A stretch of 62,724 nucleotides of DNA, counting the filler. It is 4 parts of 4 records of this genome, joined end to end, with 100 filler letters (N's around TTAATTAATTAA, not from the genome) between each part and the next. Parts side by side here need not be neighbours in the genome. Positions count along the whole stretch, not along the records: positions 10,939 to 38,490 come from SRR31156797_4998; 3 more parts are not named here. One strand, written 5' to 3'. Below the pieces are notes generated by a model, which saw only the letters and a list, made by a program, of their open reading frames with translations, searched no databases and was not told where the DNA came from. Shown one piece after another: positions 27,410 to 53,263 of this stretch; position 1 is the stretch's first letter; each line of letters begins with the position of its first letter. The translations under genes were made by a program, and so were the position numbers.

Positions 27410-28189
27410 TTAATTTTCTTTCCACCATGTTTCCAATTCTGTTTCTCTAGCTTTTTGCGTTTCTTCTCCAGAATACCCGCCTTCCCATGCTTTGTTTAAT
27501 GATTCCCAACCAAAGGAATTATATTTGGAATTAGGATGAAACTCACTAGTCCCAGTATCTAATTCATCCGATTGAGGAATTCTACTATCTCCCCAATTAG
27601 CTTTTATAATATTTGATTTGGCATACGCAGACCAATTTCCGGCGAATTGATTGTTATTATACATTGCAGAAACATCCCATAAGTCGTTGTATTTAATAAT
27701 CCCATCTTCATCCTTATACCAATAAGTCACGAAGCGTCCTTTAAATATTCCGGAGTGATTTGAATCAGGATCTTCATAAAATCGATATTCTCCAGAAAGA
27801 ATTCCATTTTTACCATTTGGGTACTCCAAAGACTTCATGTAGTAAGATTCTTTTATCTCAATAATTCCTTGAAACGGACAAATATTATCTGAAACTTTGC
27901 TTTTACCATAAATAAAATATTGATTTGGACAGTTATTATTCTTAATAATAGAGAGAAACTTTATTCGCAACCTTCGATAATTATTCCCTATAAATCCAAA
28001 TCTTCTTTCAGAAGGATTATCTATCCAAAATCTACTCACATCAAGTTGCTTTAGTTCATCAAGATTTGACTTAGATAATTCAAATTCATCATCAAGATCA
28101 ATAATATCTTTATAGTCCGTTAGTCCATTTTGACAAAATGATATCATTGGGAATAAAACGAAAAATAGAATGTTAAAAGTTAGTTTCAT
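27410..28189 (-). CDS. Hypothetical exported protein
   Basis: 259 aa ORF with N-terminal signal peptide. Confidence 0.65.
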   Translation of the reverse strand: MKLTFNILFFVLFPMISFCQNGLTDYKDIIDLDDEFELSKSNLDELKQLDVSRFWIDNPSERRFGFIGNNYRRLRIKFLSIIKNNNCPNQYFIYGKSKVSDNICPFQGIIEIKESYYMKSLEYPNGKNGILSGEYRFYEDPDSNHSGIFKGRFVTYWYKDEDGIIKYNDLWDVSAMYNNNQFAGNWSAYAKSNIIKANWGDSRIPQSDELDTGTSEFHPNSKYNSFGWESLNKAWEGGYSGEETQKARETELETWWKEN

Positions 28190-28241
28190 TTTTTCTATTA
28201 TTATTGATAGAGGTATTGCTTAAAGTTTGTTGGCAAACATT

Positions 28242-28976
28242 TTATTTAATTTTCTTCAAAACAGTTGTTTCTCCAACAACCTTTGCTTTAATCCAATCGG
28301 ATTCATTTTCATAGGCACCTCTGACTTTTCTTAAGTTCAAATTCCTACCGTCAAACCACCAGTGATATTCTTCGAAATTTCCATCTTTTGTATATAAATA
28401 CATCCCATCCATTCCATTTCCTTCTTCCCAAAAATCGATTATTAATGAATAATTTACAATTGAATCCAATCCTGTAATTGTATAGTCATTATTAAATATG
28501 ATAGTAGAATTATTCGATTCTCTTATGTAAGTTCCAGTAAATATATTTTTCGAAAAATATTCATTAAGTGGTGGTATATTTTCTCGTCTTGAAAAAATAT
28601 TAGCAGTCGTGTCATGATCTCTGAAGAATTCTTGGATTGTTAATGATTCATTATCAAAATTAATCTTCCAATATTGTGAGTCATCGCCCATTGTGTATGA
28701 CACTTCATCCCACTCATCCAATCTGTCTTTCCATGATTCATGATAGCCAATAAAACTAATAGAGTCCATATTGTTCCTGTCAAACGTAATCTTATAAGCA
28801 TATGATGCACAAGCTCCAGAATACTTATAGATTTTTTTATTTATAATTGTTGAATCTAAATACTCTATTAAATACCAATTTTCTACCTGAATTGATTCTT
28901 CTAAATTCGACTTATCCTGCCCAAGTAGGCTACTTATGAATACAATCAGGAAAATATCAGTCAATATTTGTTTCAT
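28242..28976 (-). CDS. Hypothetical exported protein
   Basis: 244 aa ORF with signal peptide; acidic and aromatic-rich. Confidence 0.65.
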   Translation of the reverse strand: MKQILTDIFLIVFISSLLGQDKSNLEESIQVENWYLIEYLDSTIINKKIYKYSGACASYAYKITFDRNNMDSISFIGYHESWKDRLDEWDEVSYTMGDDSQYWKINFDNESLTIQEFFRDHDTTANIFSRRENIPPLNEYFSKNIFTGTYIRESNNSTIIFNNDYTITGLDSIVNYSLIIDFWEEGNGMDGMYLYTKDGNFEEYHWWFDGRNLNLRKVRGAYENESDWIKAKVVGETTVLKKIK

Positions 28977-29229
28977 TTGACTCTCCTTAAAATGTTTAAC
29001 AAGCTATAAATAAACACCATGCCATTTATACATTTATTGCTAGTGCATTTATCCGCCAACATGAGTCAGCAATGCACACCTATTATATTTTAAATTATGA
29101 ATCTACAAAACAATAAGCCCTTAACAAAGCATTGTAAATGATATTTTAAACCAGCTTGTTTAGATAATTTAACTATTGACACACTTTAATGAAAAGACTC
29201 CTTATTTTATTTGAACACTGTGGCACTTG

Positions 29230-29498
29230 TTCCGTAACTGGATTGGTCTGATCCGTAACAATGGTTTTATCTTCCGTACACAATTTTTCCCGTTCCGTTA
29301 CAGCTTGCTGGTATTCCGTTCAGAGTTTCACCCCTTCCGTTACAAAGGGAAGCTATTTTCGCTGTCACGGAAGGCCAAACCCATGTCACGGAAACTATTT
29401 TCGCTGTCACGGAAGGCTAACCCAATCTAACGGAAAGCCAATTTCATGTCACGGAAGGCTAAGCCCGTGTTACGGAACTATCACCATGGCGTACGGAA
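29230..29498. repeat. 21-bp-phased head-to-head array of a 9-bp motif (consensus TTCCGTNAC) with variable 12-bp spacers
   Basis: Forward copies at 29230, 29251, 29272, 29293, 29314, 29335; inverted copies (consensus GTNACGGAA) at 29364, 29385, 29406, 29427, 29448, 29469, 29490; degenerate inverted copy at 29343. Confidence 0.95.
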
Positions 29499-29594
29499 AA
29501 CCTTTTCGATTTTACAAATGAGAACTTTTAACATCTTTTAAAGTCAAGGATCGCATGCTTTTTGCTATATTCAACCGAAACAAAAATTGACAAC

Positions 29595-30164
29595 ATGAAG
29601 AAATTAGCAATATTATTACTGATCTGTTTTAGCATAAGCCCGACAATCGCTCAAAAAAAATTGAAACAACATTTCGAAAAAGATTTAATTAGCTACACCA
29701 CAGCTTTCAATAACAAACAGTGGAATGTAGTAACCGAAATGATGTATCCACGTGTTTTTGAAATGATGAGCAAAGACAATATGGTAATGGTAATGCAGGG
29801 AATGGACAATATGGGCGTGAAAATGACCACCGATTTTAAATCGATAGATAAAATTTCGGATGTGGTAGAATCGGGTAAGGAAAAATATTGCAAGATATAT
29901 TACTATGGAGTAGTTAAGGTTAAACTTTCGGGATTAATGAGCCAGGGCAGTAGTTTGGTTCAGCCAAAGTTTGAAGCGGAATTTGGCAAAGAAAACGTAA
30001 AATACAACGAAGAAAGCAATTCATTTACCATACAGGCACACAGGTCGATGGTGGCTGTTGCCGACAAAAAAACGGATAACTGGAAATACATCGATATCAA
30101 TTCACCACAAGCCAAAGGTCTTCAAAAATTGATTCCTGCTAATGTGAAACAGAGGCTGAATTAA
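29595..30164 (+). CDS. Hypothetical exported protein (NTF2-like pattern possible)
   Basis: Signal peptide MKKLAILLLICFSISPTIAQ starting at ATG 29595. Confidence 0.65.
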   Translation: MKKLAILLLICFSISPTIAQKKLKQHFEKDLISYTTAFNNKQWNVVTEMMYPRVFEMMSKDNMVMVMQGMDNMGVKMTTDFKSIDKISDVVESGKEKYCKIYYYGVVKVKLSGLMSQGSSLVQPKFEAEFGKENVKYNEESNSFTIQAHRSMVAVADKKTDNWKYIDINSPQAKGLQKLIPANVKQRLN

Positions 30165-30224
30165 ATTCAAAGCTTCAAATTCCAGGTATCAAGCTCCAAG
30201 TATAAGTATAAACAAGTAAAAATT

Positions 30225-30392
30225 GTGCATAAAGCAATTTGCAGTATTGGAAGAGAGGCAAAATTAAGTTATCTTGGAATTACAGTTATAAGATTTACCA
30301 ATCAAGAAATTTTTAATAATCTACCCTGTATTGTTGAAAAAATAGAACAATCTTGTAATACTCTAGAAGAATTGCAGGAAGATCCCCTTTAG
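30225..30392 (+). pseudogene. C-terminal remnant of a DUF559 (Vsr-like) endonuclease
   Basis: Frame reads ...REAKLSYLGITVIRFTNQEIFNNLPCIVEKIEQ..., the DUF559 C-terminal R..L...G..V.RF.N..I pattern; the N-terminal part is absent. Confidence 0.65.
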
Positions 30393-30405
30393 GGGACCAA
30401 GGGGT
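30383..30405. repeat. Short GC-rich REP-like hairpin TCCCC-TTTA-GGGGA plus CCAAGGGGT tail
   Basis: GC-rich palindrome in an AT-rich context overlapping the DUF559 remnant stop codon. Confidence 0.55.
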
Positions 30406-30424
30406 GTTTTTAAAACCATTCTCT

Positions 30425-31402
30425 ATGAAAATATATTTCTCAGGATCGATACGAGGAGGACAGCAAGATGCTGAACTTTATCAGGAAATCATTACAGATT
30501 TAAAACAATATGGTACTGTACTAACCGAACATATCGGAAATAAAGTACAGGATAGCAGTTTAAACGACGAAGAAATTCATAACCGTGACGTGGAGTGGCT
30601 GGAAGAATCGGATGTGGTCGTTGCCGAAGTTACCACTACATCACTGGGAGTTGGCTATGAAATTGGTCGCGCTGTTGAAATGAAAAAGCCAATTGTTTGT
30701 TTGTATAGAACCGAATATGGCAAAAATGTTTCGGCCATGATTCGTGGGTGTGCTCAGTTAAAATGTTTCGAATACAGTACGCTTGACCAAGCTAAAACAA
30801 TCCTAAAAAAACATTTTAATGCCATTAACATGAACTGGAGAGATTTCTCCTATCTAAAAAATGGGACTCCTACCCAGGTAGAGGCATACAAGTGCTTAAA
30901 CAAACTGCATATATTCGATTCTCTTCACGAATACAATCCTACGCTTACCGGAACTATTCCTATTGATATTGCGATAGATTCGAGCGATTTGGATATTGTT
31001 TGCTACTATATGGATGCAGATCGATTTGAGTCAAGAGTTGAATCTCTGTTTGGAAAGCAAAAAGAATTTACAATTGAACAAAAAGAAAAGGATGGCTATT
31101 GGGTAGTGGTTGCCCGATTTAAATTCCAAAATTTCGATATCGAAATATATGGTTCTCTTTTCCCGGTTATCTCACAAAACTCTTATCGCCATATGCTGAT
31201 AGAGGATAGAGTTTTGAAACTATTGGGAGAGGAATTTAAACAACAAGTAATTCAACTAAAAAAAGATGGATTAAAAACAGAGCCAGCTTTTGCCCAGCTT
31301 TTACAATTATCGGGTAATCCGTACGTTGAGCTTTTAAAACTTGAGTTGTACTCCGACAATAAAATCAAAGAAATGTGGGAATTAAATCCCAATCAGGCAT
31401 AA
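30425..31402 (+). CDS. Fusion of a nucleoside 2-deoxyribosyltransferase/DNPH1-like N-glycosidase and a DUF4269 nucleotidyltransferase-like domain
   Basis: N-terminal KIYFSGSIRGG and DVVVAEVTTTSLGVGYEIG; C-terminal LTGTIPIDIAIDSSDLDIVC, YRHMLIE and GLKTEPAFA. Confidence 0.75.
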   Translation: MKIYFSGSIRGGQQDAELYQEIITDLKQYGTVLTEHIGNKVQDSSLNDEEIHNRDVEWLEESDVVVAEVTTTSLGVGYEIGRAVEMKKPIVCLYRTEYGKNVSAMIRGCAQLKCFEYSTLDQAKTILKKHFNAINMNWRDFSYLKNGTPTQVEAYKCLNKLHIFDSLHEYNPTLTGTIPIDIAIDSSDLDIVCYYMDADRFESRVESLFGKQKEFTIEQKEKDGYWVVVARFKFQNFDIEIYGSLFPVISQNSYRHMLIEDRVLKLLGEEFKQQVIQLKKDGLKTEPAFAQLLQLSGNPYVELLKLELYSDNKIKEMWELNPNQA

Positions 31403-31476: not shown

Positions 31477-31794
31477 ATGAAGAAAATTGTGAAGATGAAA
31501 GAGCAGAACTGTTGGGAATATTTTAATTGTGGTAGAGAGCCTGGAGGAGTAAACACTAATGAATTAGGAATTTGCCCAGCAAGTACATTATTACAAAACA
31601 CCGGCATAAACGGTGGAACGTACGCTGGAAGATACTGCTGGACTGTTGAAGGAACCTTGTGCGATCATAAAATACAAGGTGGTTTGGAAGACAAATTACT
31701 CTCTTGCATCAATTGTAGTTTTTTTAAACTGGTAAATCAAGAAGAGGGACGTGAGTTTATAATGCTTACCGAAGAAGTCCTCAAAAAACAATAA
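31477..31794 (+). CDS. Two-CW domain cysteine-rich protein
   Basis: NCWEYFNCGREPGG..GICPA..GRYCWTVEGTLC..CINCSFF; seven Cys. Confidence 0.75.
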   Translation: MKKIVKMKEQNCWEYFNCGREPGGVNTNELGICPASTLLQNTGINGGTYAGRYCWTVEGTLCDHKIQGGLEDKLLSCINCSFFKLVNQEEGREFIMLTEEVLKKQ

Positions 31795-31919
31795 AAGACG
31801 AAAATATCCTATTTAAGTCAATTCAAAATCACAATCCATCAATCAAAGTTGAGAAAAGATTTGTTTTTAGTATCTTACTTTCACTTTTTTAAGAGGATAG
31901 GCTACCAATTGGATAAAGT

Positions 31920-33032
31920 ATGATGGATTTTTCTAAGATTATTCAAAATAATATTTCGGTACAGACATTACTAAAGTCAATTTCGGAAGGCGTTATATTC
32001 ATTAATAAACGAGGACAAATTGTTTTTGTCAACTCTAAAACTCTTCAGTTATTTCAATTCGAAGAAAATGAAATAATTGGACAAAATATCGATATTCTTA
32101 TTCCTGATCGATATAAGAATAATCATGGAAATCATATTAAATCCTACTTCACAAACCCTAAAAATCGCTCTATGGGCGATTCAAATTCCAGGCTTTTAGC
32201 AAAAAGAAAAAATGGTGATGAATTTCCCGTTGAGATCAGCTTAAGCTATATTAATTCGGGTAAGGATTTATTTGCAATGGCATTTATTACCGATATCACG
32301 GCAAGAGTCAAAATTGAAAATGAATTGCAGCAAAGAAATCTGGAATTGGATGCTTATGCTCATACTGTAGCTCATGATTTGCAATCACAATTAAACAGCA
32401 TTATTGGCTTTGGACAAATTTTGCTAAACAAAAATAATCTGACTGAAGAAAAAAGAAATTACATCACCGAATTGATTGTTGCCAATGGCACCAAAATGAG
32501 CAATATTATTCGGGAAATTCTGTTTTATGCCAATCGAAAAAAAGAAGATATCGAAATTTCAGAATTGGATATGAATACAATTGTTGATGAAGCCATTCAA
32601 CGAATCAATCCTTCCGAAAGAAAAAATATCGAAATAAAAATTTCTCCTCAACTTGATACTTCATATGGTTGTGCTCCTTTAATTGAAGAAGTTTGGTACA
32701 ATTACATTCGTAATGCAATTCGATATGGGGGAAATCCACCAAAAATTGAAATTGGAAGTACTAAAAAAGACAATGGATACAATAAGTTTTGGATAAAAGA
32801 CAATGGCAAAGGATTAAACGAATATCAAATAAAATTCATTTTCTCGGATCCTCAGAAAATGGGTGAAGGCATAGTTAAAGGCAATGGTTTAGGATTGTCC
32901 ATTGTTCAGCGCATTGTAAAAAGACTAGATGGCTGGGTTTATGTAGAAAGTGAAATAGGAAAAGGCAGTAAGTTTAGCTTTTATTTGCCTACAAGTATGC
33001 CCGAAGAAAATAAAAATGGTCGATTAAAATAA
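31920..33032 (+). CDS. Soluble PAS-domain histidine kinase
   Basis: FixL-like PAS (LIPDRYKNNHGNHIKSY..RSMG..KRKNGDEFPVEISLS), H-box VAHDL, N/G boxes NAIRY, DNGKG and GNGLGLSIV. Confidence 0.85.
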   Translation: MMDFSKIIQNNISVQTLLKSISEGVIFINKRGQIVFVNSKTLQLFQFEENEIIGQNIDILIPDRYKNNHGNHIKSYFTNPKNRSMGDSNSRLLAKRKNGDEFPVEISLSYINSGKDLFAMAFITDITARVKIENELQQRNLELDAYAHTVAHDLQSQLNSIIGFGQILLNKNNLTEEKRNYITELIVANGTKMSNIIREILFYANRKKEDIEISELDMNTIVDEAIQRINPSERKNIEIKISPQLDTSYGCAPLIEEVWYNYIRNAIRYGGNPPKIEIGSTKKDNGYNKFWIKDNGKGLNEYQIKFIFSDPQKMGEGIVKGNGLGLSIVQRIVKRLDGWVYVESEIGKGSKFSFYLPTSMPEENKNGRLK

Positions 33033-38286: not shown

Positions 38287-38405
38287 TATAAATTCTTCTT
38301 ATTTTTATTAAAGGTAATCAGTTCTTACAAATAGATAAACCTAAAGTACTAAAAAGTTCTTTAGGTTTATTTATTTTCGTTCTTACAAACAAGCAATTAA
38401 GAAAA

Positions 38406-38490
38406 CTATTTCTTCTTCTTATGACGATTTTTTCTTAATCTTTTCTTACGCTTGTGCGTAGCCATCTTATGTCTTTTTCTTTTCTTTCCG
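38406..38490 (-). CDS. Small ribosomal protein bS22 (mS38/COX24-like), 5'-truncated at contig end and missing from the ORF track
   Basis: Reads GKKRKRHKMATHKRKKRLRKNRHKKKK*, matching the Bacteroidota bS22 pattern. Confidence 0.85.
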
Positions 38491-38590
38491 NNNNNNNNNN
38501 NNNNNNNNNNNNNNNNNNNNNNNNNNNNNNNNNNTTAATTAATTAANNNNNNNNNNNNNNNNNNNNNNNNNNNNNNNNNNNNNNNNNNNN
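38491..38590. other. Artificial contig spacer
   Basis: 44 N + TTAATTAATTAA + 44 N. Confidence 0.98.
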
Positions 38591-40201
<1,611 letters not shown>

Positions 40202-40205
40202 TTCT

Positions 40206-40751
40206 GTGAACTACTTTAAAAAACTTAGAATATTGATTGGTGCATTTTTACTTAGAAGAAAATTGAAAAATATTAAACGAACACCAATTATATGTAACGT
40301 AGATAATGCAAAAAGTATTGGTATTGTTTTCAATTCCAGCAAAAAGGAAGATATGGCCTCTATTAAAAAGTTGGAGACTATGTTTAAACAAAAAAACATT
40401 CTTTTTGAAGTATTGGGCTATATTCCATCCAAGCATAAACCTGATGAACTAATTGGAGACAGCCATCATCACTATATTTGTTTAAAGGATTTCAATTGGC
40501 TTTTTCAACCCAAAAGCGAACTTATTCATCAATTTATTCAAAAGGATTTTGACATTCTTATCGATCTTTATCAGGAAGATGAATTTCCGATTGAATATAT
40601 TTTAAAAATATCACAAGCCCGTTTTAAAGTTGGATGTGCTCATGTAAATAACGAATTGCATGATTTAATGATTGATGTTGAAAAGAAAAAAGATGATGCT
40701 ACTTATTTGAGTGAGCAGATTTTACACTATTTAAGCATGCTGAACAATTAA
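40206..40751 (+). CDS. Conserved Bacteroidota hypothetical protein (DUF6913-like)
   Basis: KSIGIVF, FDILIDL, SQARFKVG and DLMID pattern; usual ligA neighbour. Confidence 0.6.
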   Translation: MNYFKKLRILIGAFLLRRKLKNIKRTPIICNVDNAKSIGIVFNSSKKEDMASIKKLETMFKQKNILFEVLGYIPSKHKPDELIGDSHHHYICLKDFNWLFQPKSELIHQFIQKDFDILIDLYQEDEFPIEYILKISQARFKVGCAHVNNELHDLMIDVEKKKDDATYLSEQILHYLSMLNN

Positions 40752-40752
40752 C

Positions 40753-40768
40753 TGGCACGAAAATTGAA
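40753..40768 (+). promoter_or_regulatory. Sigma-54 (-24/-12) promoter candidate for the lpoB operon
   Basis: TGGCACGAAAATTGAA; GG and the -12 dinucleotide are 12 nt apart. Confidence 0.55.
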
Positions 40769-40863
40769 ATTTCATACGAGCTTAAAAATAGAATATTAAA
40801 CATCGAAATATAGCTTATCAATAAAATTGATACAAAACCAGTAAAACCTAAAAACACAAGCAC

Positions 40864-41451
40864 ATGAAAACAAAATTATTAAGTTCATTTGTACTATTAG
40901 CCATCTTTTTTGCAGCCTGTTCTAGTCATAAAGTTGAGAGAGTATCACCAGATGAAGCCATCGACTTAAGCGGCAGATGGAATGATACTGATTCTAAAAT
41001 GGTTGCCGATGCTATGGTTGACCAAATTCTTTCCGGAGCCTGGATTGACAATTACCAGAAAGATAATGACGGCAAAAAACCTGTCGTGGTAGTGGGTTTA
41101 ATTTATAACAAATCTCATGAGCACATTAACTCTGGAACTTTTGTTAAAGATGTTGAGCGTGCTTTTATTAATAGTGGTCGTGTTCGATTAGTTCAGGCCG
41201 GAGATAAACGCGAAGAATTAAGAACAGAAAGAGCTGCTCAGCAAGAATTCGCCTCAATGGAAACTGCTAAACAATGGGGTAAAGAATTAGGTGCTGATTT
41301 TATGCTGAACGGCGATATTAATTCTATTGTAGACACCTATAAAAAAGAGCGTGTTAACTTTTACAAAACTAATTTAGAATTATCCAATCTGGAAACCAAC
41401 GAAATTGTTTGGATTGGAGATAAAGAGATTAAAAAATATATAAACAAATAA
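40864..41451 (+). CDS. lpoB: Penicillin-binding protein activator LpoB family lipoprotein
   Basis: Lipobox FAAC, DLSGRWNDTD, NKSHEHI, LGADFMLNGDI and IVWIG motifs. Confidence 0.78.
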   Translation: MKTKLLSSFVLLAIFFAACSSHKVERVSPDEAIDLSGRWNDTDSKMVADAMVDQILSGAWIDNYQKDNDGKKPVVVVGLIYNKSHEHINSGTFVKDVERAFINSGRVRLVQAGDKREELRTERAAQQEFASMETAKQWGKELGADFMLNGDINSIVDTYKKERVNFYKTNLELSNLETNEIVWIGDKEIKKYINK

Positions 41452-41553
41452 AATAAGGCATATCCGAAGCTATTATTCACTTCGGATATGCATTTTCTTC
41501 CTAATAAAATAGCACTGTTTATCACATTCCTTTCACACCTCACATCTTTACCT

Positions 41554-42960
41554 ATGCCAATTAAAAAAACAAAATATTACATTTTAATTGTCGTTTCTCT
41601 TATATCACTTAGCTTTTGGGGTTGTGCAACTTACTACCAAAAAAACTACCAGCTACAATCGTACATTACAGGTGGAAATTACGCGGCTGCAGATAAACTT
41701 TTAAACAAAGACAAGAAAGGCGAAACAGGTATTAACCGTGTTTTACACTATATGAACAAAGGGCTTGTTAACTTTATGCTGGGTAACTACCAAACCAGTA
41801 ATGAATATTTAAACAAAGCCGATTTATACAACGAAGATTATTCAAAATCATTAGGGACTGAAGCACTTTCTTTGATCTCTAATCCAATGGTAAAACCATA
41901 CAAACCTGAAGATTTTGAAGCAGTAATGGTTCATTATTACAAATCATTAAATTATCTGATGCTTCAAAATTACGAGGAAGCCTTGGTAGAATGTCGTCGT
42001 GTAAATATTCTGCTACAGCAACTAAACGACAAGTATCGCAAGCATAAAAACAAGTATAGTAATGATGCATTTGCCCACAATTTAATGGGAATGATTTATG
42101 ATGCTTCCGGTGATATGAACAATGCGTTTATTGCTTATAGAAATGCATACAATGCCTACGATGGAGAGTATAAAGAACTCTTTGGATTTGACGCTCCGGA
42201 ACAGCTTAAAAAAGATCTTTTACGTACTTCTTATAAAATGGGATTTATGGAAGAATATAATAAGTACAAGGATCTTTTTAATTTATCATATACTCCGGAA
42301 GAGGAAGAGGGTGGCTCATTGGTATTTCTTTGGATGAATGGTTTTGGGCCGGTTAAAGCAGAGTGGAGCATTAATCTTACCAACACTGGTTATAACGACG
42401 GCTGGATTACTTTTGCCAATGAAGATTTAGGTTTTGATTTTCCGGTTTATATTGGCAGTCGTAAAAAAAGTGAGCAAAATGCATTTAAGAACTTATCATT
42501 TCTAAGAATTGCCTTCCCAAAATATGTTGAAAGAAAACCCGTTTATACATATGCTAATATAACTTTTAATCAACAGGAATATCCCCTTGAACTTGCTCAA
42601 AACGTTAATGCTATTGCTTTTCAATCGTTAAAAGATAGAATGGCTCGGGAACTTGCAAATGGTATTGCACGTCTGGCTACAAAAAAAGCACTTGAGAGTC
42701 TTGCTAATCGTGAAAATGAAAACTTAGGCACATTACTAAGCATTGTAAATGCCATCACAGAAAAAGCAGATACCAGAAACTGGCAATCCTTACCATATGC
42801 CATTCACTACACGCGCATTTCATTACCTGCAGGAAAGCAATCTGTTAGCTTAAACCTTAATGGAGAATCGGAATCTTCTGAGAAATTTGAATTTAATATT
42901 GAGAAAGGTAAAACCCTATTTCATTGCTACCACCAACTGGCGTCTTCTACGGCCCATTAA
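41554..42960 (+). CDS. COG3014-like TPR lipoprotein (LpoB-associated)
   Basis: Lipobox FWGC, YKPEDFE, EALVECRR and EKADTRNWQSLP motifs. Confidence 0.7.
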   Translation: MPIKKTKYYILIVVSLISLSFWGCATYYQKNYQLQSYITGGNYAAADKLLNKDKKGETGINRVLHYMNKGLVNFMLGNYQTSNEYLNKADLYNEDYSKSLGTEALSLISNPMVKPYKPEDFEAVMVHYYKSLNYLMLQNYEEALVECRRVNILLQQLNDKYRKHKNKYSNDAFAHNLMGMIYDASGDMNNAFIAYRNAYNAYDGEYKELFGFDAPEQLKKDLLRTSYKMGFMEEYNKYKDLFNLSYTPEEEEGGSLVFLWMNGFGPVKAEWSINLTNTGYNDGWITFANEDLGFDFPVYIGSRKKSEQNAFKNLSFLRIAFPKYVERKPVYTYANITFNQQEYPLELAQNVNAIAFQSLKDRMARELANGIARLATKKALESLANRENENLGTLLSIVNAITEKADTRNWQSLPYAIHYTRISLPAGKQSVSLNLNGESESSEKFEFNIEKGKTLFHCYHQLASSTAH

Positions 42961-43105
42961 GAGTTATTAGAGGAAGGATTACGTTTATTTATCGAAATTT
43001 ACACGAAGAAATATCATTATTTTTGGATTTAGACCTTCTAATATTGTATTTTGGTACACTGAAGTTTTAAATAAATAAACTATTTAGTTAATATCAATAT
43101 TCCAG

Positions 43106-45808
43106 GTGAATTTAGCGGATCATAATTACAATCAGTATCTAAAAAAGTGGAAAAGTCAATTCAGTCTTTTTGCTGAACTCATGAATTGTAGTATGGTTTT
43201 GATCAGCAAGATAAAAGCAGATGCGTTAACTACGCTTGCTTATAGTTCTCCTGAAGAAAACGCTATATTTTACAACCAAAGTCCAGAAAACAGCTTAACA
43301 CAATCAGTGTTAGATGGTCAGAAAGAATTATTAGTTTCTAACTTACAGGAGAATGATACTTATTCTAATTCTGTAGAGAAAAAGGCTGGCCTAAAATGTT
43401 TTTATGCACTTTCAGTTCAAAACAATAAGGGTAACATAATAGGTGCACTCTGCATGTACTCTAAAAACATTAGTTTTTATACTAACGAGCGTATTGCACA
43501 ACTCACCCAGATTAAACTTCAGTTGGAGGCCGATATACAAGTTGCAATTCATGATGACATTACTGAACCTGCTATTTTTGATGATGTATTCAACAAAGAA
43601 GATAAGATAAAGCACTTCCTTAAGTTTTCGCCAATTGGAGTCTTCTTCTATGATACTAATCTGGTTATTACAGATTTGAATCATAAATTTGCTGAAATAT
43701 TAAAGTCTGAGCGAGAAGTGTTACTGGGCTTAAATATGAATTTAATTCACGACAAGCGTGTATTACCTACTTTACATAGTGCTATTTTAGGAGTGGAAGA
43801 TGAATATGAAGGTGAATACATCACATCTACCAGCGGTACTAGTATTGACGTATTAATGAAAACAGCTCCTATACTAGACAGTGACAAAAAAGTAAGCGGT
43901 GGCATAGGAATTATTCAGGATATTTCTATCCGAACTCATATTGAAAAAGCACTCAAAACCAGTGAAAATCAATATCGTGAGCTAGTTGAAAAAATCAATG
44001 ATGTAATATTTTCTATTGATACAACTGGCGTTTGCACCTATGTTAGTCCTGTTATTCAGTTACTCATTGGTCATTCACCTCAGGAAATCATTGGTTATCA
44101 TTTTATAAACTTTATACATGATAACCACAAAATCACTTTTCATGATGCTTTAAATAAAGTATCACAAGGTTCTACTGTAGTTTCTGAAATTAAAATTAAA
44201 GATAACACAGGAGGATATCGCTGGATTAGAAGTTCTATGCGTCCGGTATACAACGAAGATGGTTTATACGCAGGAGCGCATGGTATTGCTCAGGATATTG
44301 AGGAAACAAGACTTGCTGAAATATCTTTACGTGAAAGTGAAGCTCAGTTTAAACTGGTAGCAACTCACCTATCGGACATTATTTATGAGTGGAATCCCAA
44401 TACAGATGAATTAATTTGGTATGGTAACCCCAATATTATTTCAACTAAGCTAAACCATATTACAACTTTCACAGAGTTAAACGAGATTATCTACAAAGAT
44501 GATCAGGAACAAATCAAGGAACTTTGGAATAAGGCATATAGCGACCAGGAAGCCTGGAAATCTGAATTTCGTATACTTAATCCTCCACAAAAAAGTAAAT
44601 ACGTTTCCGGCAGTGGAATCTTGATATTTAAGGACAATAAGCCTCATAAAGGATTTGGAACCTTAACGGATATCTCAAATGAAAAGAAATTACTGGAAAA
44701 CTTAAGATTATCTAACCTTAAGTTGGAAGAAACCATTACAAAAACAAACGGATTATTATCTGCAATACCAGATATGATGCTGGTTTTTGATAAAAATGGG
44801 TTCATAACCGATTTTCATACGAATGATGAACAAACCTTGTTTAAAAGCTCCATTAACTTTTTAAATAAAAATATATTAAATGTATTACCCAAAGAAATAG
44901 CTGAGCTAACCCTGGAAAAAATATCAGGTGTATTACATTCTAAACAGATTGAAACCTACAAATACAAATTAAGAATTAATGGACATAAGGATACATTTGA
45001 AACACGAATGGTATACTTAAATGAGCTTCATACATTGGCTATTGTTCGGAATATAACACAAGAAGAAAAAGCTAAACTGGATTTAATAAAAGCTAAAGAA
45101 AAGGCAGAAGAAAGTGACAGACTAAAATCATCTTTTTTGGCAAACATGTCTCATGAAATCAGAACTCCAATGAATGGTATCATTGGTTTTTCTGAGTTAC
45201 TTTCCAATAAAACACTAAATCCAACTGAAAGAGAATATTACACTTCGGTTATTGTTAAAAGTGGGCATCAGCTTCTGGAAATAATAAACGATGTATTGGA
45301 GATTTCTAAAATAGAAACAGGTCAGTTGGAAGTAAACCAATCGGCAGTAAATCTTTATCAACTATTAGAGTCATTAGTCGATTTCTTTAAACCCAAAGCC
45401 ATAGAAAAATTTGTAGAACTGAATATATGTGTTCCTGATGAATTAAAGAATACGGTGCTGCTCACTGATGAAGGAAAGCTGAAGCAAATTCTCAATAATT
45501 TAATTAGCAACTCCGTTAAGTTTACATCGAATGGAAATATCAATATAGGGTTTTCTGTTGTGAACGACAGTTATTTAGAGTTTTATGTAGAAGATAACGG
45601 TATTGGTATTGCCAAGGATGAGCAAAAAAACATATTTGAACGCTTTACGCAAGCTAACCCCAAAATTACGCGTCAGCATGGAGGTACCGGTTTGGGTTTA
45701 TCCATATCTCAAAGTCTGGTTGAAATGCTTAGGGGAAAAATATGGGTTGATTCTGAGTTAGATAAAGGAGCTAAATTTTCTTTTTCTCTTCCTTATAAAA
45801 AGCCCTAA
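43106..45808 (+). CDS. Cytoplasmic GAF/multi-PAS sensor histidine kinase
   Basis: GAF-like N-terminus, about four PAS domains, [20 protein letters not shown] and GGTGLGLSI. Confidence 0.9.
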   Translation: MNLADHNYNQYLKKWKSQFSLFAELMNCSMVLISKIKADALTTLAYSSPEENAIFYNQSPENSLTQSVLDGQKELLVSNLQENDTYSNSVEKKAGLKCFYALSVQNNKGNIIGALCMYSKNISFYTNERIAQLTQIKLQLEADIQVAIHDDITEPAIFDDVFNKEDKIKHFLKFSPIGVFFYDTNLVITDLNHKFAEILKSEREVLLGLNMNLIHDKRVLPTLHSAILGVEDEYEGEYITSTSGTSIDVLMKTAPILDSDKKVSGGIGIIQDISIRTHIEKALKTSENQYRELVEKINDVIFSIDTTGVCTYVSPVIQLLIGHSPQEIIGYHFINFIHDNHKITFHDALNKVSQGSTVVSEIKIKDNTGGYRWIRSSMRPVYNEDGLYAGAHGIAQDIEETRLAEISLRESEAQFKLVATHLSDIIYEWNPNTDELIWYGNPNIISTKLNHITTFTELNEIIYKDDQEQIKELWNKAYSDQEAWKSEFRILNPPQKSKYVSGSGILIFKDNKPHKGFGTLTDISNEKKLLENLRLSNLKLEETITKTNGLLSAIPDMMLVFDKNGFITDFHTNDEQTLFKSSINFLNKNILNVLPKEIAELTLEKISGVLHSKQIETYKYKLRINGHKDTFETRMVYLNELHTLAIVRNITQEEKAKLDLIKAKEKAEESDRLKSSFLANMSHEIRTPMNGIIGFSELLSNKTLNPTEREYYTSVIVKSGHQLLEIINDVLEISKIETGQLEVNQSAVNLYQLLESLVDFFKPKAIEKFVELNICVPDELKNTVLLTDEGKLKQILNNLISNSVKFTSNGNINIGFSVVNDSYLEFYVEDNGIGIAKDEQKNIFERFTQANPKITRQHGGTGLGLSISQSLVEMLRGKIWVDSELDKGAKFSFSLPYKKP

Positions 45809-45810
45809 CG

Positions 45811-46428
45811 TTACCTTGTAGTTATAAAGTTGCATTTCACCGAATCCACCTTCTCAAATCGATTTATCACTTTCTCCACTTCCGACTGTCTTAATGCAAA
45901 CTCAATCACACAATTTAAATCAAACTGCTGATTAGTAATATTAATATTTTCTTCTTTTACAATCCGCATAACATCATTCATAGCCAAATAATCAAATGCG
46001 ATTTCATAAACATCATCCACTGTTTTTTCAATGATGGTCGCATTATTTATGGCATCAATCGTGGCTTCTTTGTAGGCATGAATTAATCCTGGTACACCTA
46101 ATTTAGTTCCTCCAAAATAACGAATTACCACTACAAGTATGTTAGTTAATTCATTTGATTTTAATTGCCCATGAATGGGTTTACCTGCCGTTCCAGAAGG
46201 TTCCCCATCATCATTTGCCCTATATCTTAAACCATCTGTACCCAATTGCCATGCAAAACAATGGTGGCGGGCATCGTAATATTCCTCCCTTAAGTGCTTA
46301 ACTATATCCTTTATTTCTTCTTCTGAATATACTGGGTAGGCATATGAAATAAATTTGCTTCCTTTTTCTTTATAAATCCCTTCCGATGATGCCTCTATGG
46401 TTTTATATAAATCAATATTTTCTGCCAT
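45811..46428 (-). CDS. yigZ: YigZ/IMPACT family protein
   Basis: KGSKFISY, ARHHCFAW, DDGEPSGTAG and RYFGGTKLG motifs. Confidence 0.92.
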   Translation of the reverse strand: MAENIDLYKTIEASSEGIYKEKGSKFISYAYPVYSEEEIKDIVKHLREEYYDARHHCFAWQLGTDGLRYRANDDGEPSGTAGKPIHGQLKSNELTNILVVVIRYFGGTKLGVPGLIHAYKEATIDAINNATIIEKTVDDVYEIAFDYLAMNDVMRIVKEENINITNQQFDLNCVIEFALRQSEVEKVINRFEKVDSVKCNFITTR

Positions 46429-46498
46429 TCGAATACTAATACCCTTCTTTATTTAATAATCACACAAACTTACAAAAAATACATCCCTATCAAAAAAC

Positions 46499-46537
46499 AT
46501 CAAAAGGCTATCCTTACCACAAGAATAGCCTTTTGAT
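46499..46537 (-). terminator. Terminator hairpin after the NigD-like gene
   Basis: ATCAAAAGGCTAT...ATAGCCTTTTGAT inverted repeat. Confidence 0.65.
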
Positions 46538-46555
46538 TAAATTGTATATAAATTT

Positions 46556-47245
46556 TTATTCTACTTCATACTCTAAATTAAAATCCTGCTCCTGAGAATC
46601 CCCGCTATTAATCCTGAGTGTAAATTCTATTACATTATCTTCATCCATTTCAGACCACATTTGTAGCTGACTGATATTAAACGAATATAAACCTGCTACA
46701 TATTCATCATCATCATTAACTTCAGGATAATAATTACGTAATTCAAGAATTACAGGCTCCCCTTCTTCTTGAATTGTTTCGTCATAACATAAAGAAAAAA
46801 CATGATCTCCTTCCTCCTGCTCATAAACAAGTTCGAGGTTTAAATAATCACCACCAACCAAAGGATATGCACTTAATTGAACAAAACCATTGCCAATCGT
46901 ATCTCTGCTATTTTCGTTTAATGCTACCAAGTCTCCTTCTTCTACATAGTATAATTGCTCAAGATTAACAAGGTAATCATAGATTCCTCCAGCATTTTCC
47001 TCCTCTATGGTAAAAGTTATTACTACTCTGTCATTTTCTTCAAACTGTAAATCCGAATCATCAAATTCATTCATCTTTAATACCAATCCTCCATCGGTTG
47101 TGGCGTAATAAACATCTCCAATTGTATACATATTACTCCAGGCCGAATAGTATATTGGTTGCGGGTCTTCGTCTTCCAAACAACTATACAGACCTGTTGA
47201 AACCAATACCATTAAAAAGATAAATCCTAATTTAAAATTTCTCAT
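46556..47245 (-). CDS. NigD-like acidic lipoprotein
   Basis: Lipobox LYSC, TDGG..RVVITF OB-like N-terminus, YLNL, HVFSL and ILELR. Confidence 0.65.
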   Translation of the reverse strand: MRNFKLGFIFLMVLVSTGLYSCLEDEDPQPIYYSAWSNMYTIGDVYYATTDGGLVLKMNEFDDSDLQFEENDRVVITFTIEEENAGGIYDYLVNLEQLYYVEEGDLVALNENSRDTIGNGFVQLSAYPLVGGDYLNLELVYEQEEGDHVFSLCYDETIQEEGEPVILELRNYYPEVNDDDEYVAGLYSFNISQLQMWSEMDEDNVIEFTLRINSGDSQEQDFNLEYEVE

Positions 47246-47352
47246 TGTATAAAATGTGTGTTTAATATTTTGTTACTTTATATTGTGATAGCAATTACAC
47301 CAAAAGGTTGCGTTAACTTTTCTATTATTTTAGTCTAAAATTACTAATTAAT

Positions 47353-48189
47353 ATGGCTTCTGAAAGCTCAAACAAATCATATTGTTGCCAAATAACAATT
47401 GGAGAGCAAGCTCAAAACATTGATTACAAAAACATAAAAGAAGTATATGAAGTAATTCGAGTAGAAAACAAAGTTCCGGTATTTCTCGATGATCATATGC
47501 ACAGATTAAATAATAGTTTTAAGCGACTAAACATTTCTAATATTTTTTATCCGGAACAATTAACTAAAGCAATTCATCAATTCATCATCAACGATCAGAT
47601 TATAAATAACAATATTAGAGTTTCATGTTTACTAAACCCTGATAACTCTTGCAATTATTATATATATAGGGTTAAATCATCATATCCCACTTCGCTTATG
47701 TATAAAAATGGAGTAGATACGATTTTATTGCATGCAGAAAGAAAAAATCCTAACATTAAAATTGGCCATACACAGGTGAGAGAAACTGCCAACAAAGAAA
47801 TATTAGAACGACATGTATTTGAGAGCCTATTGGTTAATCATGATGATGAAATTACAGAGGGTAGTCGTTCTAACGTTTTTTTTGTTCATAATAATCAAAT
47901 TATTACAGCTCCGGATAATTTGGTGCTTCAAGGAATAATCAGAAGTAAGGTGATTGAAATTTGCCAACAAAATGAGTTGCCATTAATTTATAAATGTCTA
48001 CCTATTGGTGAATTAAAAGATGTACAAGCAGCTTTTATTACAGGAACCTCATCGCGCGTTTTACCTTTAAGATCCATTGATAATGTGGCCTTAAGCACAG
48101 ATCATCCCTATATAATTCAGTTAAAGGAATTACTTAAGCAGAAAGTACAGCACTATATCCAAAACGATACCAACAAATTATCGAAATAA
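47353..48189 (+). CDS. Aminotransferase class IV (PabC/IlvE-like)
   Basis: VYEVIRV, HMHRL, ITEGSRSNVFF, LQGIIR and FITGTS motifs. Confidence 0.85.
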   Translation: MASESSNKSYCCQITIGEQAQNIDYKNIKEVYEVIRVENKVPVFLDDHMHRLNNSFKRLNISNIFYPEQLTKAIHQFIINDQIINNNIRVSCLLNPDNSCNYYIYRVKSSYPTSLMYKNGVDTILLHAERKNPNIKIGHTQVRETANKEILERHVFESLLVNHDDEITEGSRSNVFFVHNNQIITAPDNLVLQGIIRSKVIEICQQNELPLIYKCLPIGELKDVQAAFITGTSSRVLPLRSIDNVALSTDHPYIIQLKELLKQKVQHYIQNDTNKLSK

Positions 48190-48636
48190 ACGCTCATCAA
48201 AATGAAAAGATTCTATATATTTAATCTTTACCCTGTTAAAATCAGCATGAAGCGGATTAATAATGATATTATAATCACCATGAACTACTGCGGACGGTAC
48301 TTTTAAATACAAGAATTTTCCTTCTTCTACAAACTCCTCTCCTATCTCCTGAGTAACTTTTGAATAAGGAAAATAATTCCAACTACTTGGTAGTTTATTT
48401 GCTTCTATAGTTTTAAAAGGAACATTGTCAGGTATTTCTATTGTTATTAATTGATAATCCTTTGGTAATATTCCCATGGGTGTATGTACAGCTATTTCTG
48501 CAGTACACAAAGCCCTGGAATCTGAAGTATACAAAACACGCGTGCCTTTATAATTCCAACGGCCACCAGTTAATTCTGCACCAATACCTGATAAATCACT
48601 GGCATACCTTTTTACAGCTAAACGATAAACCATCAT
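48178..48636 (-). CDS. RES-domain toxin (type II toxin-antitoxin; NAD+-consuming family)
   Basis: VYRL, GGRWN, LYTS, AE, VPSAV and NIIINPLH motifs. Confidence 0.88.
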   Translation of the reverse strand: MMVYRLAVKRYASDLSGIGAELTGGRWNYKGTRVLYTSDSRALCTAEIAVHTPMGILPKDYQLITIEIPDNVPFKTIEANKLPSSWNYFPYSKVTQEIGEEFVEEGKFLYLKVPSAVVHGDYNIIINPLHADFNRVKIKYIESFHFDERLFR

Positions 48637-49046
48637 GCTAAAATACCGTGCTCTATTTTTAGCAATTCGTCCTTAATCATATTAATACCAAAGGTATTAT
48701 CCAATAAAGAAATGGGTTCAATACCTCCTAGAGACACACTACGGGTATTTAACCAACTTATAAACTTATCATTATCTCCAAATAGCTCAAGCCCCTTTTT
48801 AAACAATAACATCACCAACAGTAAGCGTTCGGTATGTATAGAATCAAACTTCTTTTTTTCACGTTTATAGCGCTGCATAGTTCGTTCTGATACATTTAAT
48901 ATTTTGGACCAGTCGTAACTACTCAATGGAACCTGTGTAGATAAACGATCAAATGTATCGTAGTCCACTCCTTCACGGGTAGTATGTATCAATTTAAATA
49001 CATCTCTGTTGTCTAAAGACTTAAATGTTAAACGCTCTGCTCCCAT
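48633..49046 (-). CDS. Xre/MbcA/ParS-type antitoxin
   Basis: HTH ILNVSERTMQRY and C-terminal WLNT..SLGG..PISLLD..GI...L.KIEHGILA; ATGA overlap with the toxin. Confidence 0.88.
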   Translation of the reverse strand: MGAERLTFKSLDNRDVFKLIHTTREGVDYDTFDRLSTQVPLSSYDWSKILNVSERTMQRYKREKKKFDSIHTERLLLVMLLFKKGLELFGDNDKFISWLNTRSVSLGGIEPISLLDNTFGINMIKDELLKIEHGILA

Positions 49047-49063
49047 ACCATTATAATTTATTT

Positions 49064-49104
49064 CAAATTTACGACATTTTTTACATTAAACACGTCATTT
49101 GTCG
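49064..49104 (-). promoter_or_regulatory. Toxin-antitoxin promoter (-7 TAAATTTG) with adjacent candidate operators
   Basis: CAAATTTA at 49064-49071 (+ strand), CGACATTT at 49072-49079 and imperfect palindrome CGTCATTTGTCG at 49093-49104. Confidence 0.5.
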
Positions 49105-49117
49105 GGTTTGTTTATAC

Positions 49118-49148
49118 AAAAAAGCCGATGATGTATATCACCGGCTTT
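49118..49148 (-). terminator. Intrinsic terminator after icd
   Basis: AAAGCCGATGAT-GTAT-ATCACCGGCTTT hairpin with A tract on the + strand. Confidence 0.7.
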
Positions 49149-49169
49149 GATTTTATAGATTATTCAATA

Positions 49170-51434
<2,265 letters not shown>

Positions 51435-51506
51435 TTATATTGGTTATTATATTGTTATCGATTATAGAACCATGCAAAAAACAATAAGCAAGCTACATAG
51501 TTCATC

Positions 51507-53242: not shown

Positions 53243-53263
53243 GTATATTTTTTTTGCTATGCG

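Follow-up and report, generated by a model that had tools for sequence, protein, structure and literature searches.

What kind of element holds a short box at an exact 21-bp period in two inverted arms while its spacers vary freely was the question raised by positions 29230-29498 of the window, the whole 62,724-base stretch of DNA that was analyzed. The left arm (29230-29343, forward strand) consists of six TTCCGTnAC-like boxes, each followed by an unrelated 12-bp spacer, and these begin at 29230 (TTCCGTAAC), 29251 (ATCCGTAAC), 29272 (TTCCGTACA), 29293 (TTCCGTTAC), 29314 (TTCCGTTCA) and 29335 (TTCCGTTAC again). Opposite these six TTCCGT boxes (29230-29335) stand eight inverted boxes (29346-29493) in exact 21-bp register, which make up the right arm (29346-29498, reverse strand). 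Seven inverted copies start at 29364, 29385, 29406, 29427, 29448, 29469 and 29490, with their ACGGAA hexamers at 29367, 29388, 29409, 29430, 29451, 29472 and 29493, and the innermost box is a degenerate AGGGAA at 29346-29351. The gap from one ACGGAA to the next is 21 bp in all six cases, and the left arm shares this register. The core TCCGT is kept in 13 of 13 copies and an exact fit to TTCCGTNAC in only eight of them; those eight are the sole exact matches in the window, where 0.87 would be expected by chance, and none of 100 shuffles reached eight.

Box positions, gap counts and shuffles thus bear out the head-to-head, 21-bp-phased array described in the initial annotation. Its layout of six forward and seven inverted boxes with a degenerate copy at the axis needs one revision, in that the axial copy is in phase with the right arm and counts as its eighth box. 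The six and eight boxes are symmetric about a dyad at 29343, which is also the center of a palindrome, TTCCGT-TACAA-AGGGAA (TTCCGT-N5-AGGGAA; 29335-29351). Two further features noted earlier were found again, namely a higher G+C content in the array (0.44-0.49) than in its flanks (0.26-0.33) and a two-unit duplication in the right arm, which Tandem Repeats Finder reports as a 42-bp higher-order repeat at 29348-29481 (3.2 copies, 78% matches). An ordinary VNTR would have homogeneous units; here the boxes are conserved and the spacers unrelated, in keeping with what had been argued. Twenty-one base pairs correspond to two turns of B-DNA.

The array sits within a 618-bp intergenic region (28977-29594) between two diverging genes, the setting originally described. 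The left gene (28242-28976, reverse strand) encodes 244 residues with a hydrophobic N-terminus, and the right gene (29595-30164, forward strand), which starts 97 bp from the last box, encodes 189 residues with a signal-peptide-like N-terminus; neither matched a Pfam or NCBIfam family. Contigs from two other public runs, X2 and X5, also carry the array, indicating that it is real and not an assembly artefact. In both, 50 other letters replace the 91 bp at 29356-29446, making the array about two units shorter, and unit number thus varies between strains. The four strain differences listed within the array all lie in spacers or at the margin of a box. The nearest genome compared lacks both the locus and the pattern, and no flank common to this array and any other locus was found. 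Among contigs of two RNA runs, one starts at 29591 and spans the right flanking gene and another covers 29862-30100; the array itself is uncovered by these contigs, which cannot show absence, ends or strand.

A protein-coding repeat of seven residues would also give a 21-bp period, and an 86-codon frame (29261-29521) is indeed open over both arms, as is at least one frame in 8 of 14 related arrays. The arms, however, are inverted copies of each other, and the remaining 6 of the 14, among them the longest (27 and 14 units), are interrupted by stops in each of the six frames. The open frames vary between arrays and lack start codons, conservation forms one contiguous block with no 3-base periodicity in the array alignment, and the strain variant differs in length by 41 bases, not a multiple of three. 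A coding origin is therefore extremely improbable, and the array is non-coding, as first supposed.

Searching relatives for 21-bp-phased arrays and their flanking genes, as had been recommended, turned up similar arrays. Three records from relatives were examined among the 80 matches listed in a species-wide scan. The box of the window array and its box-N5-inverted-box center recur in two-armed arrays at three loci in Ancylomarina longa, among the matches listed, and at no fewer than eight loci in Marinifilum sp. RC60d5; a one-armed array is present in Marinilabiliaceae JC017, and a sister box type in two further genomes. The central box-N5-inverted-box is common to all seven related two-armed arrays examined. 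Of the 243 box-to-box gaps measured over 31 arrays or arms, 212 are exact multiples of 21 and another 27 are off by one, so that the exact two-turn phasing with unconstrained spacers first seen in the window extends across the class. The box is contiguous across 10-11 bp, and the spacers carry 0-0.7 bits per position. Comparison of paralogous arrays within a single genome showed differences at 3 of 294 positions in boxes and at 116 of 402 in spacers. Duplication of spacers in higher-order units of 42 or 63 bp is frequent, and many arrays have very unequal arms or a single arm. Arrays grow and shrink as one to three units are duplicated or lost, and their boxes are held constant as the spacers diverge under a constrained unit length.

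The window array has all the traits of this group: a 9-11 bp box, a 21-bp period, variable spacers, an inverted arm and a box-N5-box center. It is not an isolated oddity. No named class for such arrays was found in Rfam or the literature, in agreement with the earlier statement that no named element has this layout; Rfam gave no match at E ≤ 1 across positions 28000-31000 and only chance-level rows on six related loci. Unlike the 21-bp arrays, the repeats of the heptamer TAACTGA described in Beggiatoaceae and Bacteroidetes (PMC4679880) are contiguous and have no spacers. The 21-bp arrays form a recurrent and apparently undescribed class of non-coding box-and-spacer arrays.

The main new result is a link between the 21-bp arrays and two uncharacterized families of helical proteins. 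The first, p250, comprises acidic, all-helical proteins of about 250 residues (pI 4.7-5.6 in 17 of 17 members). A chain of four or more boxes lies within 1 kb downstream of the p250-family gene at 24 of 30 loci and upstream at none of the 30; among further paralogues, 6 of 9 pass the same downstream test and another two look periodic by eye. For the second family, p233 (about 233 residues), which is probably related to p250, arrays lie upstream at 15 of 30 loci and downstream at none. As background, about 250 kb of other loci contained one extra chain. In complete modules the array is found either just past the terminator of the p250 gene or upstream of the p233 gene, and gene and array are usually separated by an intrinsic terminator. 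The box sequence differs between paralogues, each having its own, and even close p233 homologues (about 60% identity) may carry different boxes. Small ORFs between arrays and p233 genes form only one large cluster, which is translation through the arrays. Genomes carry several modules each, in ordinary chromosomal contexts, and no conserved neighbor is common to the flanks of 30 module loci.

Neither family could be assigned to a known type of protein. No DNA-binding domain was recognizable in p250, nor any nuclease or RNA-binding domain in the linked proteins. The NCBIfam "PQLLE family", a name not found in the literature collection searched, scores 17-22 bits, far under its cut-off of 80, and Pfam at E ≤ 1 gave scattered chance rows only on 19 members. 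PHROGs returned no match and PADLOC only weak, chance-level rows (E 0.0027-0.038). Foldseek yielded no fold match at E ≤ 0.001, the best VIA-align Z of 9.0 is under the chance level expected for helical bundles, and matches in the ESM Atlas were "hypothetical protein" clusters only. In all, the linked family amounts to roughly a thousand uncharacterized protein clusters. In 12 of 16 modules, neither the linked gene nor the region upstream of it, where its promoter lies, holds box copies or their complements, and autoregulation of the operator type is accordingly absent. Neither tblastn nor profile searches found a p250 or p233 homologue in the window, and the left flanking gene is unrelated to both families, identifying the window array as an orphan. 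Orphans also occur in JC017, where none of the five p250 loci examined carries a module with exactly the same box. The neighbors of orphan arrays are heterogeneous, with divergent, convergent and tandem arrangements.

Dispersal of this kind might come from a minisatellite, selfish or neutral, or from a piece of a mobile element that serves no purpose where it lies, its boxes being kept by a spreading or homogenizing mechanism. The arrays are multicopy in Marinifilum sp. RC60d5 (52 box-pair matches versus 3 for a control pattern), where they lie inside a dispersed repeat of about 510 bp with sharp ends and copies 87-98% identical, one of which has only two boxes. Their distribution is sporadic (10 of 133 genomes in the family-wide scan), their unit number varies, and the linked gene families are themselves multicopy, with pseudogenes and with three near-identical copies in one genome. 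Tandem repeats of 21 bp are also common in the order: four TCCGT cores at 21-bp spacing were found in 25 of 401 genomes, versus about 22 for the reversed control, a scan whose matches are mostly homogeneous repeats and which says little about the array class. Conversion or slippage, however, would homogenize whole units rather than 10 of 21 positions, and spacer length is conserved in spite of saturated sequence divergence. The opposite side of the linked genes is free of box copies. A search for terminal inverted repeats, target duplications and a transposase showed none of them; for transposon or MITE ends, the resemblance consists of near-identical dispersed copies in one genome, internal to the 510-bp repeat, which has no visible inverted termini or duplications. 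A selfish origin was accordingly judged decidedly unlikely.

Direct repeats at a two-turn period with an inverted center, next to a gene whose specificity goes with its own repeats, recall Rep-iteron and SopB-sopC pairs, and the array could derive from the iterons or centromere of an integrated or former replicon, with Rep monomers or a partition protein bound to the direct repeats and the inverted center as operator. Iterons with their Rep proteins and centromeres such as the P1 and F iterons, sopC and parC are arrays of about two turns that load protein cooperatively beside their specificity gene, and inverted copies in such systems serve as dimer operators. The 21-bp arrays differ from these in conserving only 10 of 21 positions and in lacking a Rep or Par gene, a DnaA box and an AT-rich unwinding region. 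No Rep, ParA, ParB, ParM/ParR or equivalent was found among the ORFs at 19.9-40.2 kb, and no conserved neighbor of the kind that a partition centromere would have accompanies the module loci. DnaA-box-like sites are not enriched in the window (21 found versus 20.4 expected) and none lies in 28977-29594. The linked protein had no match in 72,556 plasmid and 50,697 phage records, and several modules per genome in ordinary chromosomal contexts argue further against a replicon origin, which is very unlikely.

A more familiar candidate is an amplified operator for a LytTR or an AraC-type/HTCS regulator with 21-bp site spacing, controlling the flanking genes. LytTR sites, according to PMC2766830 and PMC6193735, are 9-bp imperfect direct repeats 12 (11-13) bp apart, occurring as pairs 4-11 bp upstream of the -35 element and adjoining or controlling the operon of the regulator. 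The arrays share this geometry of a 9-bp box (9-11 bp across the class) and a 12-bp spacer, with direct repeats on one face of the helix. Predicted Bacteroides HTCS operators (PMC3878776) likewise combine a conserved box with a non-conserved spacer, as direct repeats averaging 21 bp apart in the same phylum. Regulators also adjoin some related arrays, namely a LytTR two-component pair at one locus, AraC-type regulators at two and a DUF6377 SusR-like regulator, and SusC-like genes lie downstream of two of the arrays, next to regulators of AraC or SusR-like type.

The surroundings of the arrays fit this candidate less well than their geometry does. The window contains 13-14 boxes in two inverted arms rather than a promoter-proximal pair, and tblastn found no LytTR, AraC or SusR-like gene in the window, nor Pfam a LytTR domain in 19 neighboring ORFs. 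Arrays of 13 or more sites are not known for either regulator family. Unlike the LytTR sites described in those papers, many related arrays are downstream of genes, and three lie between convergent genes or directly after terminators. The predicted HTCS operators of PMC3878776 have two sites and a motif private to each regulator, whereas the arrays have many boxes and the same box is found beside regulators of different families or beside none. Nor would a set of unrelated regulators be expected to tie arrays with different boxes so closely to a single protein family. AraC-type context fits at two related loci and a LytTR pair lies near one. We regard a conventional operator as fairly unlikely.

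The differing boxes of paralogues, the variable spacers and the orphan copies invite comparison with the logic of RNA-guided arrays, and the array might work as RNA, either as a hairpin ladder in which boxes pair and spacers loop out or as a sponge or guide array for the adjacent protein. As in CRISPR and TIGR arrays, variable spacers separate conserved repeats, repeat specificity follows the lineage of the adjacent gene, orphan arrays exist and unit number is strain-variable. The 21-bp arrays depart from both in their unit (a 9-11 bp repeat plus an 11-12 bp spacer), in their two inverted arms, in spacers that arise by duplication and drift, and in the absence of a linked Cas or Nop-domain protein. 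TIGR arrays are built of 36-nt bipartite units. Repeats of 23 nt or longer (CRISPR) or 36-nt units, unique spacers and an adjacent Cas or Nop effector were all missing here, and Cas and Nop domains are absent from the window neighbors as well as from the linked proteins. Annotation of the window neighbors likewise agrees with the earlier remark that no Cas, Rep, ParB or Nop-domain gene is adjacent, and the same holds for regulators. Type III toxin-antitoxin RNAs (ToxI and relatives) provide another parallel, with a terminator separating tandem repeats from the adjoining protein gene, the same arrangement as in the present modules. ToxI-type repeats, however, are homogeneous, 34-45 nt long, in one orientation and upstream of the toxin gene, and the protein linked to the 21-bp arrays shows no relation to known toxins.

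Folding was consistent with an RNA role at first sight, since 29220-29510 folds better than shuffles on both strands (z -4.8 and -4.2), yet any sequence built from inverted copies of a single hexamer would fold well by construction. The helical ladder with 9-bp rungs that had been put forward is not supported: there is no covariation, bases flanking the box matching at 2.17 of 5 positions in register (n = 40) versus 2.36 of 5 out of register (n = 289). The many arrays with one arm or very unequal arms, the terminator between gene and array, spacers duplicated rather than unique, the lack of an Rfam match and a unit length kept at 21 ± 1, a constraint foreign to RNA guide arrays, also weigh against an RNA role. 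Exact copies of the Bacteroidetes -7 motif, TAnnTTTG, stand ahead of only 3 of 22 arrays and, read on the opposite strand, behind 1 of 22. A published likeness is found in a 2026 preprint (10.64898/2026.10.21.760802), which describes uncharacterized head-to-head arrays of fixed n-mers and variable 3-mers with period 7-8 in Chloroflexota and Patescibacteriota, and proposes such a fold for them. These share with the 21-bp arrays a reverse-complemented second arm, complementarity confined to the fixed words and a function that is not known, but differ in period (7-8 versus 21, the strings "21 nt" and "21-nt" being absent from that text), in the 11-12 nt spacers of our arrays and in phylum; a co-localized protein family is present for the 21-bp arrays, and in the preprint text none was found. 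Function as RNA is thus an unlikely, if still serious, alternative.

We tentatively favor, at somewhat short of an even chance, a DNA scaffold with helically phased boxes on which a box-specific factor supplied in trans, possibly the linked helical protein, would dock; the RNA ladder, the ordinary transcription factor, the iteron and the selfish minisatellite are weaker readings. LytTR and predicted HTCS sites provide precedents for protein sites two turns apart. The array would act as double-stranded DNA presenting all boxes on one face of the helix for cooperative docking. A dimer of a box-specific factor may nucleate at the palindromic center (box-N5-inverted box), from which assembly would extend outward along both arms, and the adjacent helical protein would be the leading candidate for this reader or for a partner of it. 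The window array, placed between two divergent genes for putative small secreted proteins, would be bound by a factor acting in trans. Several observations count against this reading: the candidate reader is an acidic helical bundle in which no DNA-binding domain could be recognized, its boxes are mostly missing from its own promoter, close p233 homologues may have different boxes, the window has no homologue of either family, the JC017 orphans have no module with exactly their box among the loci examined, and the surroundings of orphan arrays vary. A cooperative protein-docking scaffold had been proposed from the outset, and it stays the best, though a tentative, reading. A more specific version, in which gene and array form a cis-encoded recognition system of a hitherto unrecognized kind, each PQLLE-like paralogue reading or using its own array and orphans serving as docking sites in trans, is possible but rather doubtful. 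Specificity would then diversify between paralogues as in Rep-iteron or effector-repeat pairs, and orphan arrays would place the system elsewhere, for example as a phased nucleoprotein barrier or organizer between genes. Since gene and array are inherited together, a match between protein relatedness and box type is no proof of recognition. The combination of linked-protein fold and array geometry matches no described DNA- or RNA-guided system.

Even if the arrays are selfish, the keeping of 10 of 21 positions and an exact unit length amid drift needs explaining. The class is computationally easy to find, and its natural box variants and unit numbers provide a series for testing two-turn phasing in cooperative assembly. 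Orphan copies lie inside promoter regions, including those of polysaccharide-uptake genes, and may affect expression there. If the link between gene and array does reflect recognition, it would represent a new bacterial pairing of a protein family with private, rapidly diversifying phased nucleic-acid sites, and some thousand uncharacterized protein clusters that make up this family would gain a function.

The array at 29230-29498 consists of six forward boxes with a TTCCGT core (starts at 29230, 29251, 29272, 29293, 29314 and 29335) facing seven inverted boxes (starts 29364 through 29490), and re-reading of the sequence agreed with the initial annotation on this layout, on the 42-bp higher-order repeat and on the increase in GC (0.44-0.49 within the array). 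The degenerate inverted copy reported at the axis is present (AGGGAA, 29346-29351) and, when the sequence is set in 21-bp rows, falls in phase with the right arm. The array thus has six boxes on the left and eight on the right, arranged symmetrically around a dyad at 29343. Its centre is the palindrome TTCCGT-TACAA-AGGGAA. TCCGT is retained in 13/13 box copies, and eight boxes fit TTCCGTNAC exactly; these are the sole exact matches within the window, where 0.87 would be expected by chance and a count of eight was reached in none of 100 shuffles. The array site is a 618-bp divergent intergenic region bordered by two small genes, neither of which belongs to a known family. Contigs from two other public runs (X2 and X5), with flanks about 95-97% identical, also contain the array, which is thus not the assembly artefact considered earlier. 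Since 29356-29446 is replaced in both contigs by 50 other letters, unit number varies between strains; each of the four X2/X5 substitutions listed within the array falls either within a spacer or at the edge of a box.

An 86-codon open frame spans both arms, but a coding repeat was rejected, since one arm is an inverted copy of the other and the length changes by 41 bases in the strain variant. Six of 14 related arrays, including the two longest, have stops in all six frames, and the open frames of related arrays are array-specific and lack start codons. In 82 units with a window-type box, selected by TCCG and therefore fixed by construction at those four positions, the conserved positions form a single unbroken stretch of 10-11 bp (consensus cTTCCGTnACA), the remaining 10-11 positions carrying 0-0.7 bits. 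The profile of these units has no 3-base periodicity, contrary to the 7-aa coding repeat that the initial annotation had named as a finding that would refute it.

A search of the array region and related loci against Rfam matched no family. Function as RNA, either as a hairpin ladder or as a sponge, might be suggested by the fold of both arms, which beats shuffles (z -4.8 and -4.2); however, this reflects the inversion of one hexamer and nothing more. Partners in register are complementary at 2.17/5 flanking positions versus 2.36/5 out of register, which speaks against the proposed ladder of 9-bp helices. The many one-armed arrays and the lack of a consistent promoter motif beside arrays also weigh against a role as RNA. 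A survey of periodic arrays in a 2026 preprint describes formally similar head-to-head arrays with a period of 7-8 in other phyla, also unexplained (10.64898/2026.10.21.760802).

The suggestion that relatives be scanned for 21-bp-phased arrays proved productive, pattern scans finding them in several genomes. Among the matches listed were window-type arrays at three loci in Ancylomarina longa (e.g. 8 forward and 6 inverted boxes), at no fewer than eight loci in Marinifilum sp. RC60d5, where box-pair matches numbered 52 versus 3 for a reversed control pattern, and in Marinilabiliaceae bacterium JC017 (five forward boxes). Two genomes of the same family (G022 and G047) each have three loci with arrays of a sister type, whose box is cTTCCGTAG/C. 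All seven related two-armed window-type arrays have the box-N5-inverted box centre, in place of which sister-type arrays have N26-27. Beside one sister-type array (L041, about 8440-8800; G047:C2) a ∼170-bp tandem duplication was seen by eye, each copy starting with TTATCCACA, the DnaA-box consensus.

In a census of 243 box-to-box gaps over 31 arrays or arms, 187 were exactly 21 bp, 25 were 42 or 63 bp, 27 were off by one and four were spurious intra-unit matches. The presence of 42- and 63-bp higher-order units and of adjacent identical units indicates that arrays enlarge by unit duplication. Paralogous arrays of Marinifilum sp. differ at 3/294 box versus 116/402 spacer positions, a contrast somewhat inflated because the comparison was anchored on boxes. 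These arrays are embedded in a ∼510-bp non-coding dispersed repeat (L227 570-1078 and 4966-5766; also L225, L226, L230 and L231) with sharp ends and copies 87-98% identical, each copy containing between 2 and about 14 boxes internally; neither inverted termini nor target duplications are visible in this repeat, and it has no Rfam match. The flanks of the window array have nothing in common with any other locus. Dispersal and patchiness are compatible with a selfish minisatellite, but such an element would not be expected to conserve 10 of its 21 positions selectively, nor to keep its spacer length. The boxes are under constraint, as is spacer length, whereas spacer sequence is free.

Two window-type arrays from two genera each lie about 100 bp past the stop codon of a 250-aa gene, and the two genes are homologous. 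This family, p250, is present in 41/133 genomes of the family searched, often in multiple copies (up to 8 per genome), some with internal stops. When 30 p250 loci were scanned for chains, defined as at least four identical 5-mers spaced 21 +/- 1 bp apart, a chain was found within 1 kb downstream of the gene in 24 and within 1 kb upstream in none; some 250 kb of sequence from other loci gave one chain beyond arrays already known. Six of nine further paralogues had a chain, and two more were periodic by eye. The box is private to each paralogue (for example CGACCGGAAG, CGAGCGGAAG, CGATGGGA, CGGCAGGAG, GTGATAT, TTACAAA, CCATTGGCAA and CCGCGGGA). Modules (gene plus own array) whose proteins are most closely related to that of the window-type module have a ...CGGAAG box ending in common. 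A hairpin resembling an intrinsic terminator usually separates gene and array, and the genes flanking p250 modules are unrelated between loci. Downstream of sister-type arrays, at 250-580 bp, lies a gene of a second family, of about 233 aa (p233); p233 genes have a 21-bp array upstream in 15/30 loci, again with varied boxes, and downstream in 0/30. Since p250 and p233 align by profile over 192 columns (probability 36%, E 3.7e-4) and both match the same NCBIfam model below threshold, the two families are probably related. No member of either was found in the window, whose array is therefore an orphan, as are most Marinifilum sp. arrays and two of the three A. longa arrays.

Several array loci had further features. 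Three near-identical 2.3-2.6 kb p250 gene units in one genome, G030 (L266 8989-9712, L267 and L268), have a 154-bp tandem repeat, in 4.7 copies, on the upstream side of the gene and just 2.3 copies of a 21-bp unit downstream. In G001, the nearest genome compared, the variable region equivalent to the window's (L286, syntenic with window 21.5-34.6 kb) holds its own p250 module (2293-2991 and about 1930-2170), in which a TAGGT box recurs about 12 times with a 21-bp period. The module directly follows a DUF4924 gene that is conserved in the window. A 1389-aa ORF of Marinifilum sp. RC60d5 (L231 346-4515), starting MKKILGLDLGTTSIGWA and possibly Cas9-like, lies about 570 bp from an array whose other side is occupied by the p250 gene. 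Short CTTGATACTTGATACT-form repeats lie on both sides of the one-armed JC017 array (L013 / L142, about 5060-5270), and in another genome a comparable run is found ahead of an unrelated array linked to p250 (L265, about 2890-2930).

p250 matched no Pfam, PHROG or PADLOC family and no NCBIfam model above cut-off. Its AlphaFold model, which is confident, is an elongated all-helical bundle (pLDDT 93.4) for which PDB comparison gave no match above the noise level for helical proteins. The family comprises 958 representative clusters at E <= 0.001 and is taxonomically patchy (3/401 genomes of a phylum-wide sample). All 17 members examined are acidic (pI 4.7-5.6) with a basic C-terminal helix.

A contiguous 10-bp box, one turn long, repeated every two turns places all boxes on one face of B-DNA. 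Plasmid iterons also have this geometry; however, iterons or a centromere are disfavoured by the lack of a Rep or Par gene and of a DnaA box, and by the absence of p250 in searches of 72,556 plasmid records and 50,697 phage records. The same geometry is described for LytTR sites (PMC2766830, PMC6193735) and for the predicted sites of AraC-type hybrid regulators in Bacteroides (PMC3878776). A conventional LytTR or AraC operator is thus compatible in geometry, and such regulators occur near a few related loci, but they vary while the box stays the same, and such an operator would not explain why arrays are linked to one protein family; no LytTR, AraC-type or SusR-like gene was found in the window. 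The palindromic centre, with half-sites 11 bp apart, is compatible with a dimer. Taken together, the two-turn phasing, these precedents and the dimer-like centre make a cooperative, phased docking scaffold on DNA the best reading, in which factor assembly would nucleate at the palindromic centre. Because each gene-linked array has a private box, we infer that the adjacent protein would be the first candidate for the reader of the array, or for the reader's partner. Weighing against this step, p250 is acidic and without a recognisable nucleic-acid-binding domain, its own boxes are missing from the p250 promoter in 12/16 modules, and boxes would be expected to follow protein phylogeny through co-inheritance alone.

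Elsewhere in the window, bases 1-38591, which include the array, are about 68% identical to G001, and bases 38592-56291 are 96-98% identical to a different part of it. The window is composite, with a junction near 38592 (38287-38800), and an NAD-dependent DNA ligase ORF (38786-40201) starts within the adenylation domain (profile position 146/253); this start and the identity shift near 38592 suggest a chimeric join or recent replacement. At 31477-33032, the gene for a 105-aa two-CW-domain protein (NCBIfam NF045718, E 8e-29) immediately precedes that for a PAS histidine kinase, an orphan in that no response regulator lies alongside, and a nucleoside 2-deoxyribosyltransferase-like domain is fused to DUF4269 in one ORF (30404-31402).

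Literature searches of main texts found no description of 21-bp tandem repeats in Bacteroidetes promoters, of such arrays among iteron-like repeats in Bacteroidetes or of 21-bp repeats with variable spacers, nor the name 'PQLLE'; '21 nt' or '21-nt' never occurs in the text of the periodic-array survey (10.64898/2026.10.21.760802). Within the main texts searched, 21-bp box-and-spacer arrays linked to genes form an undescribed class, of which the window offers a clean, symmetric orphan example.
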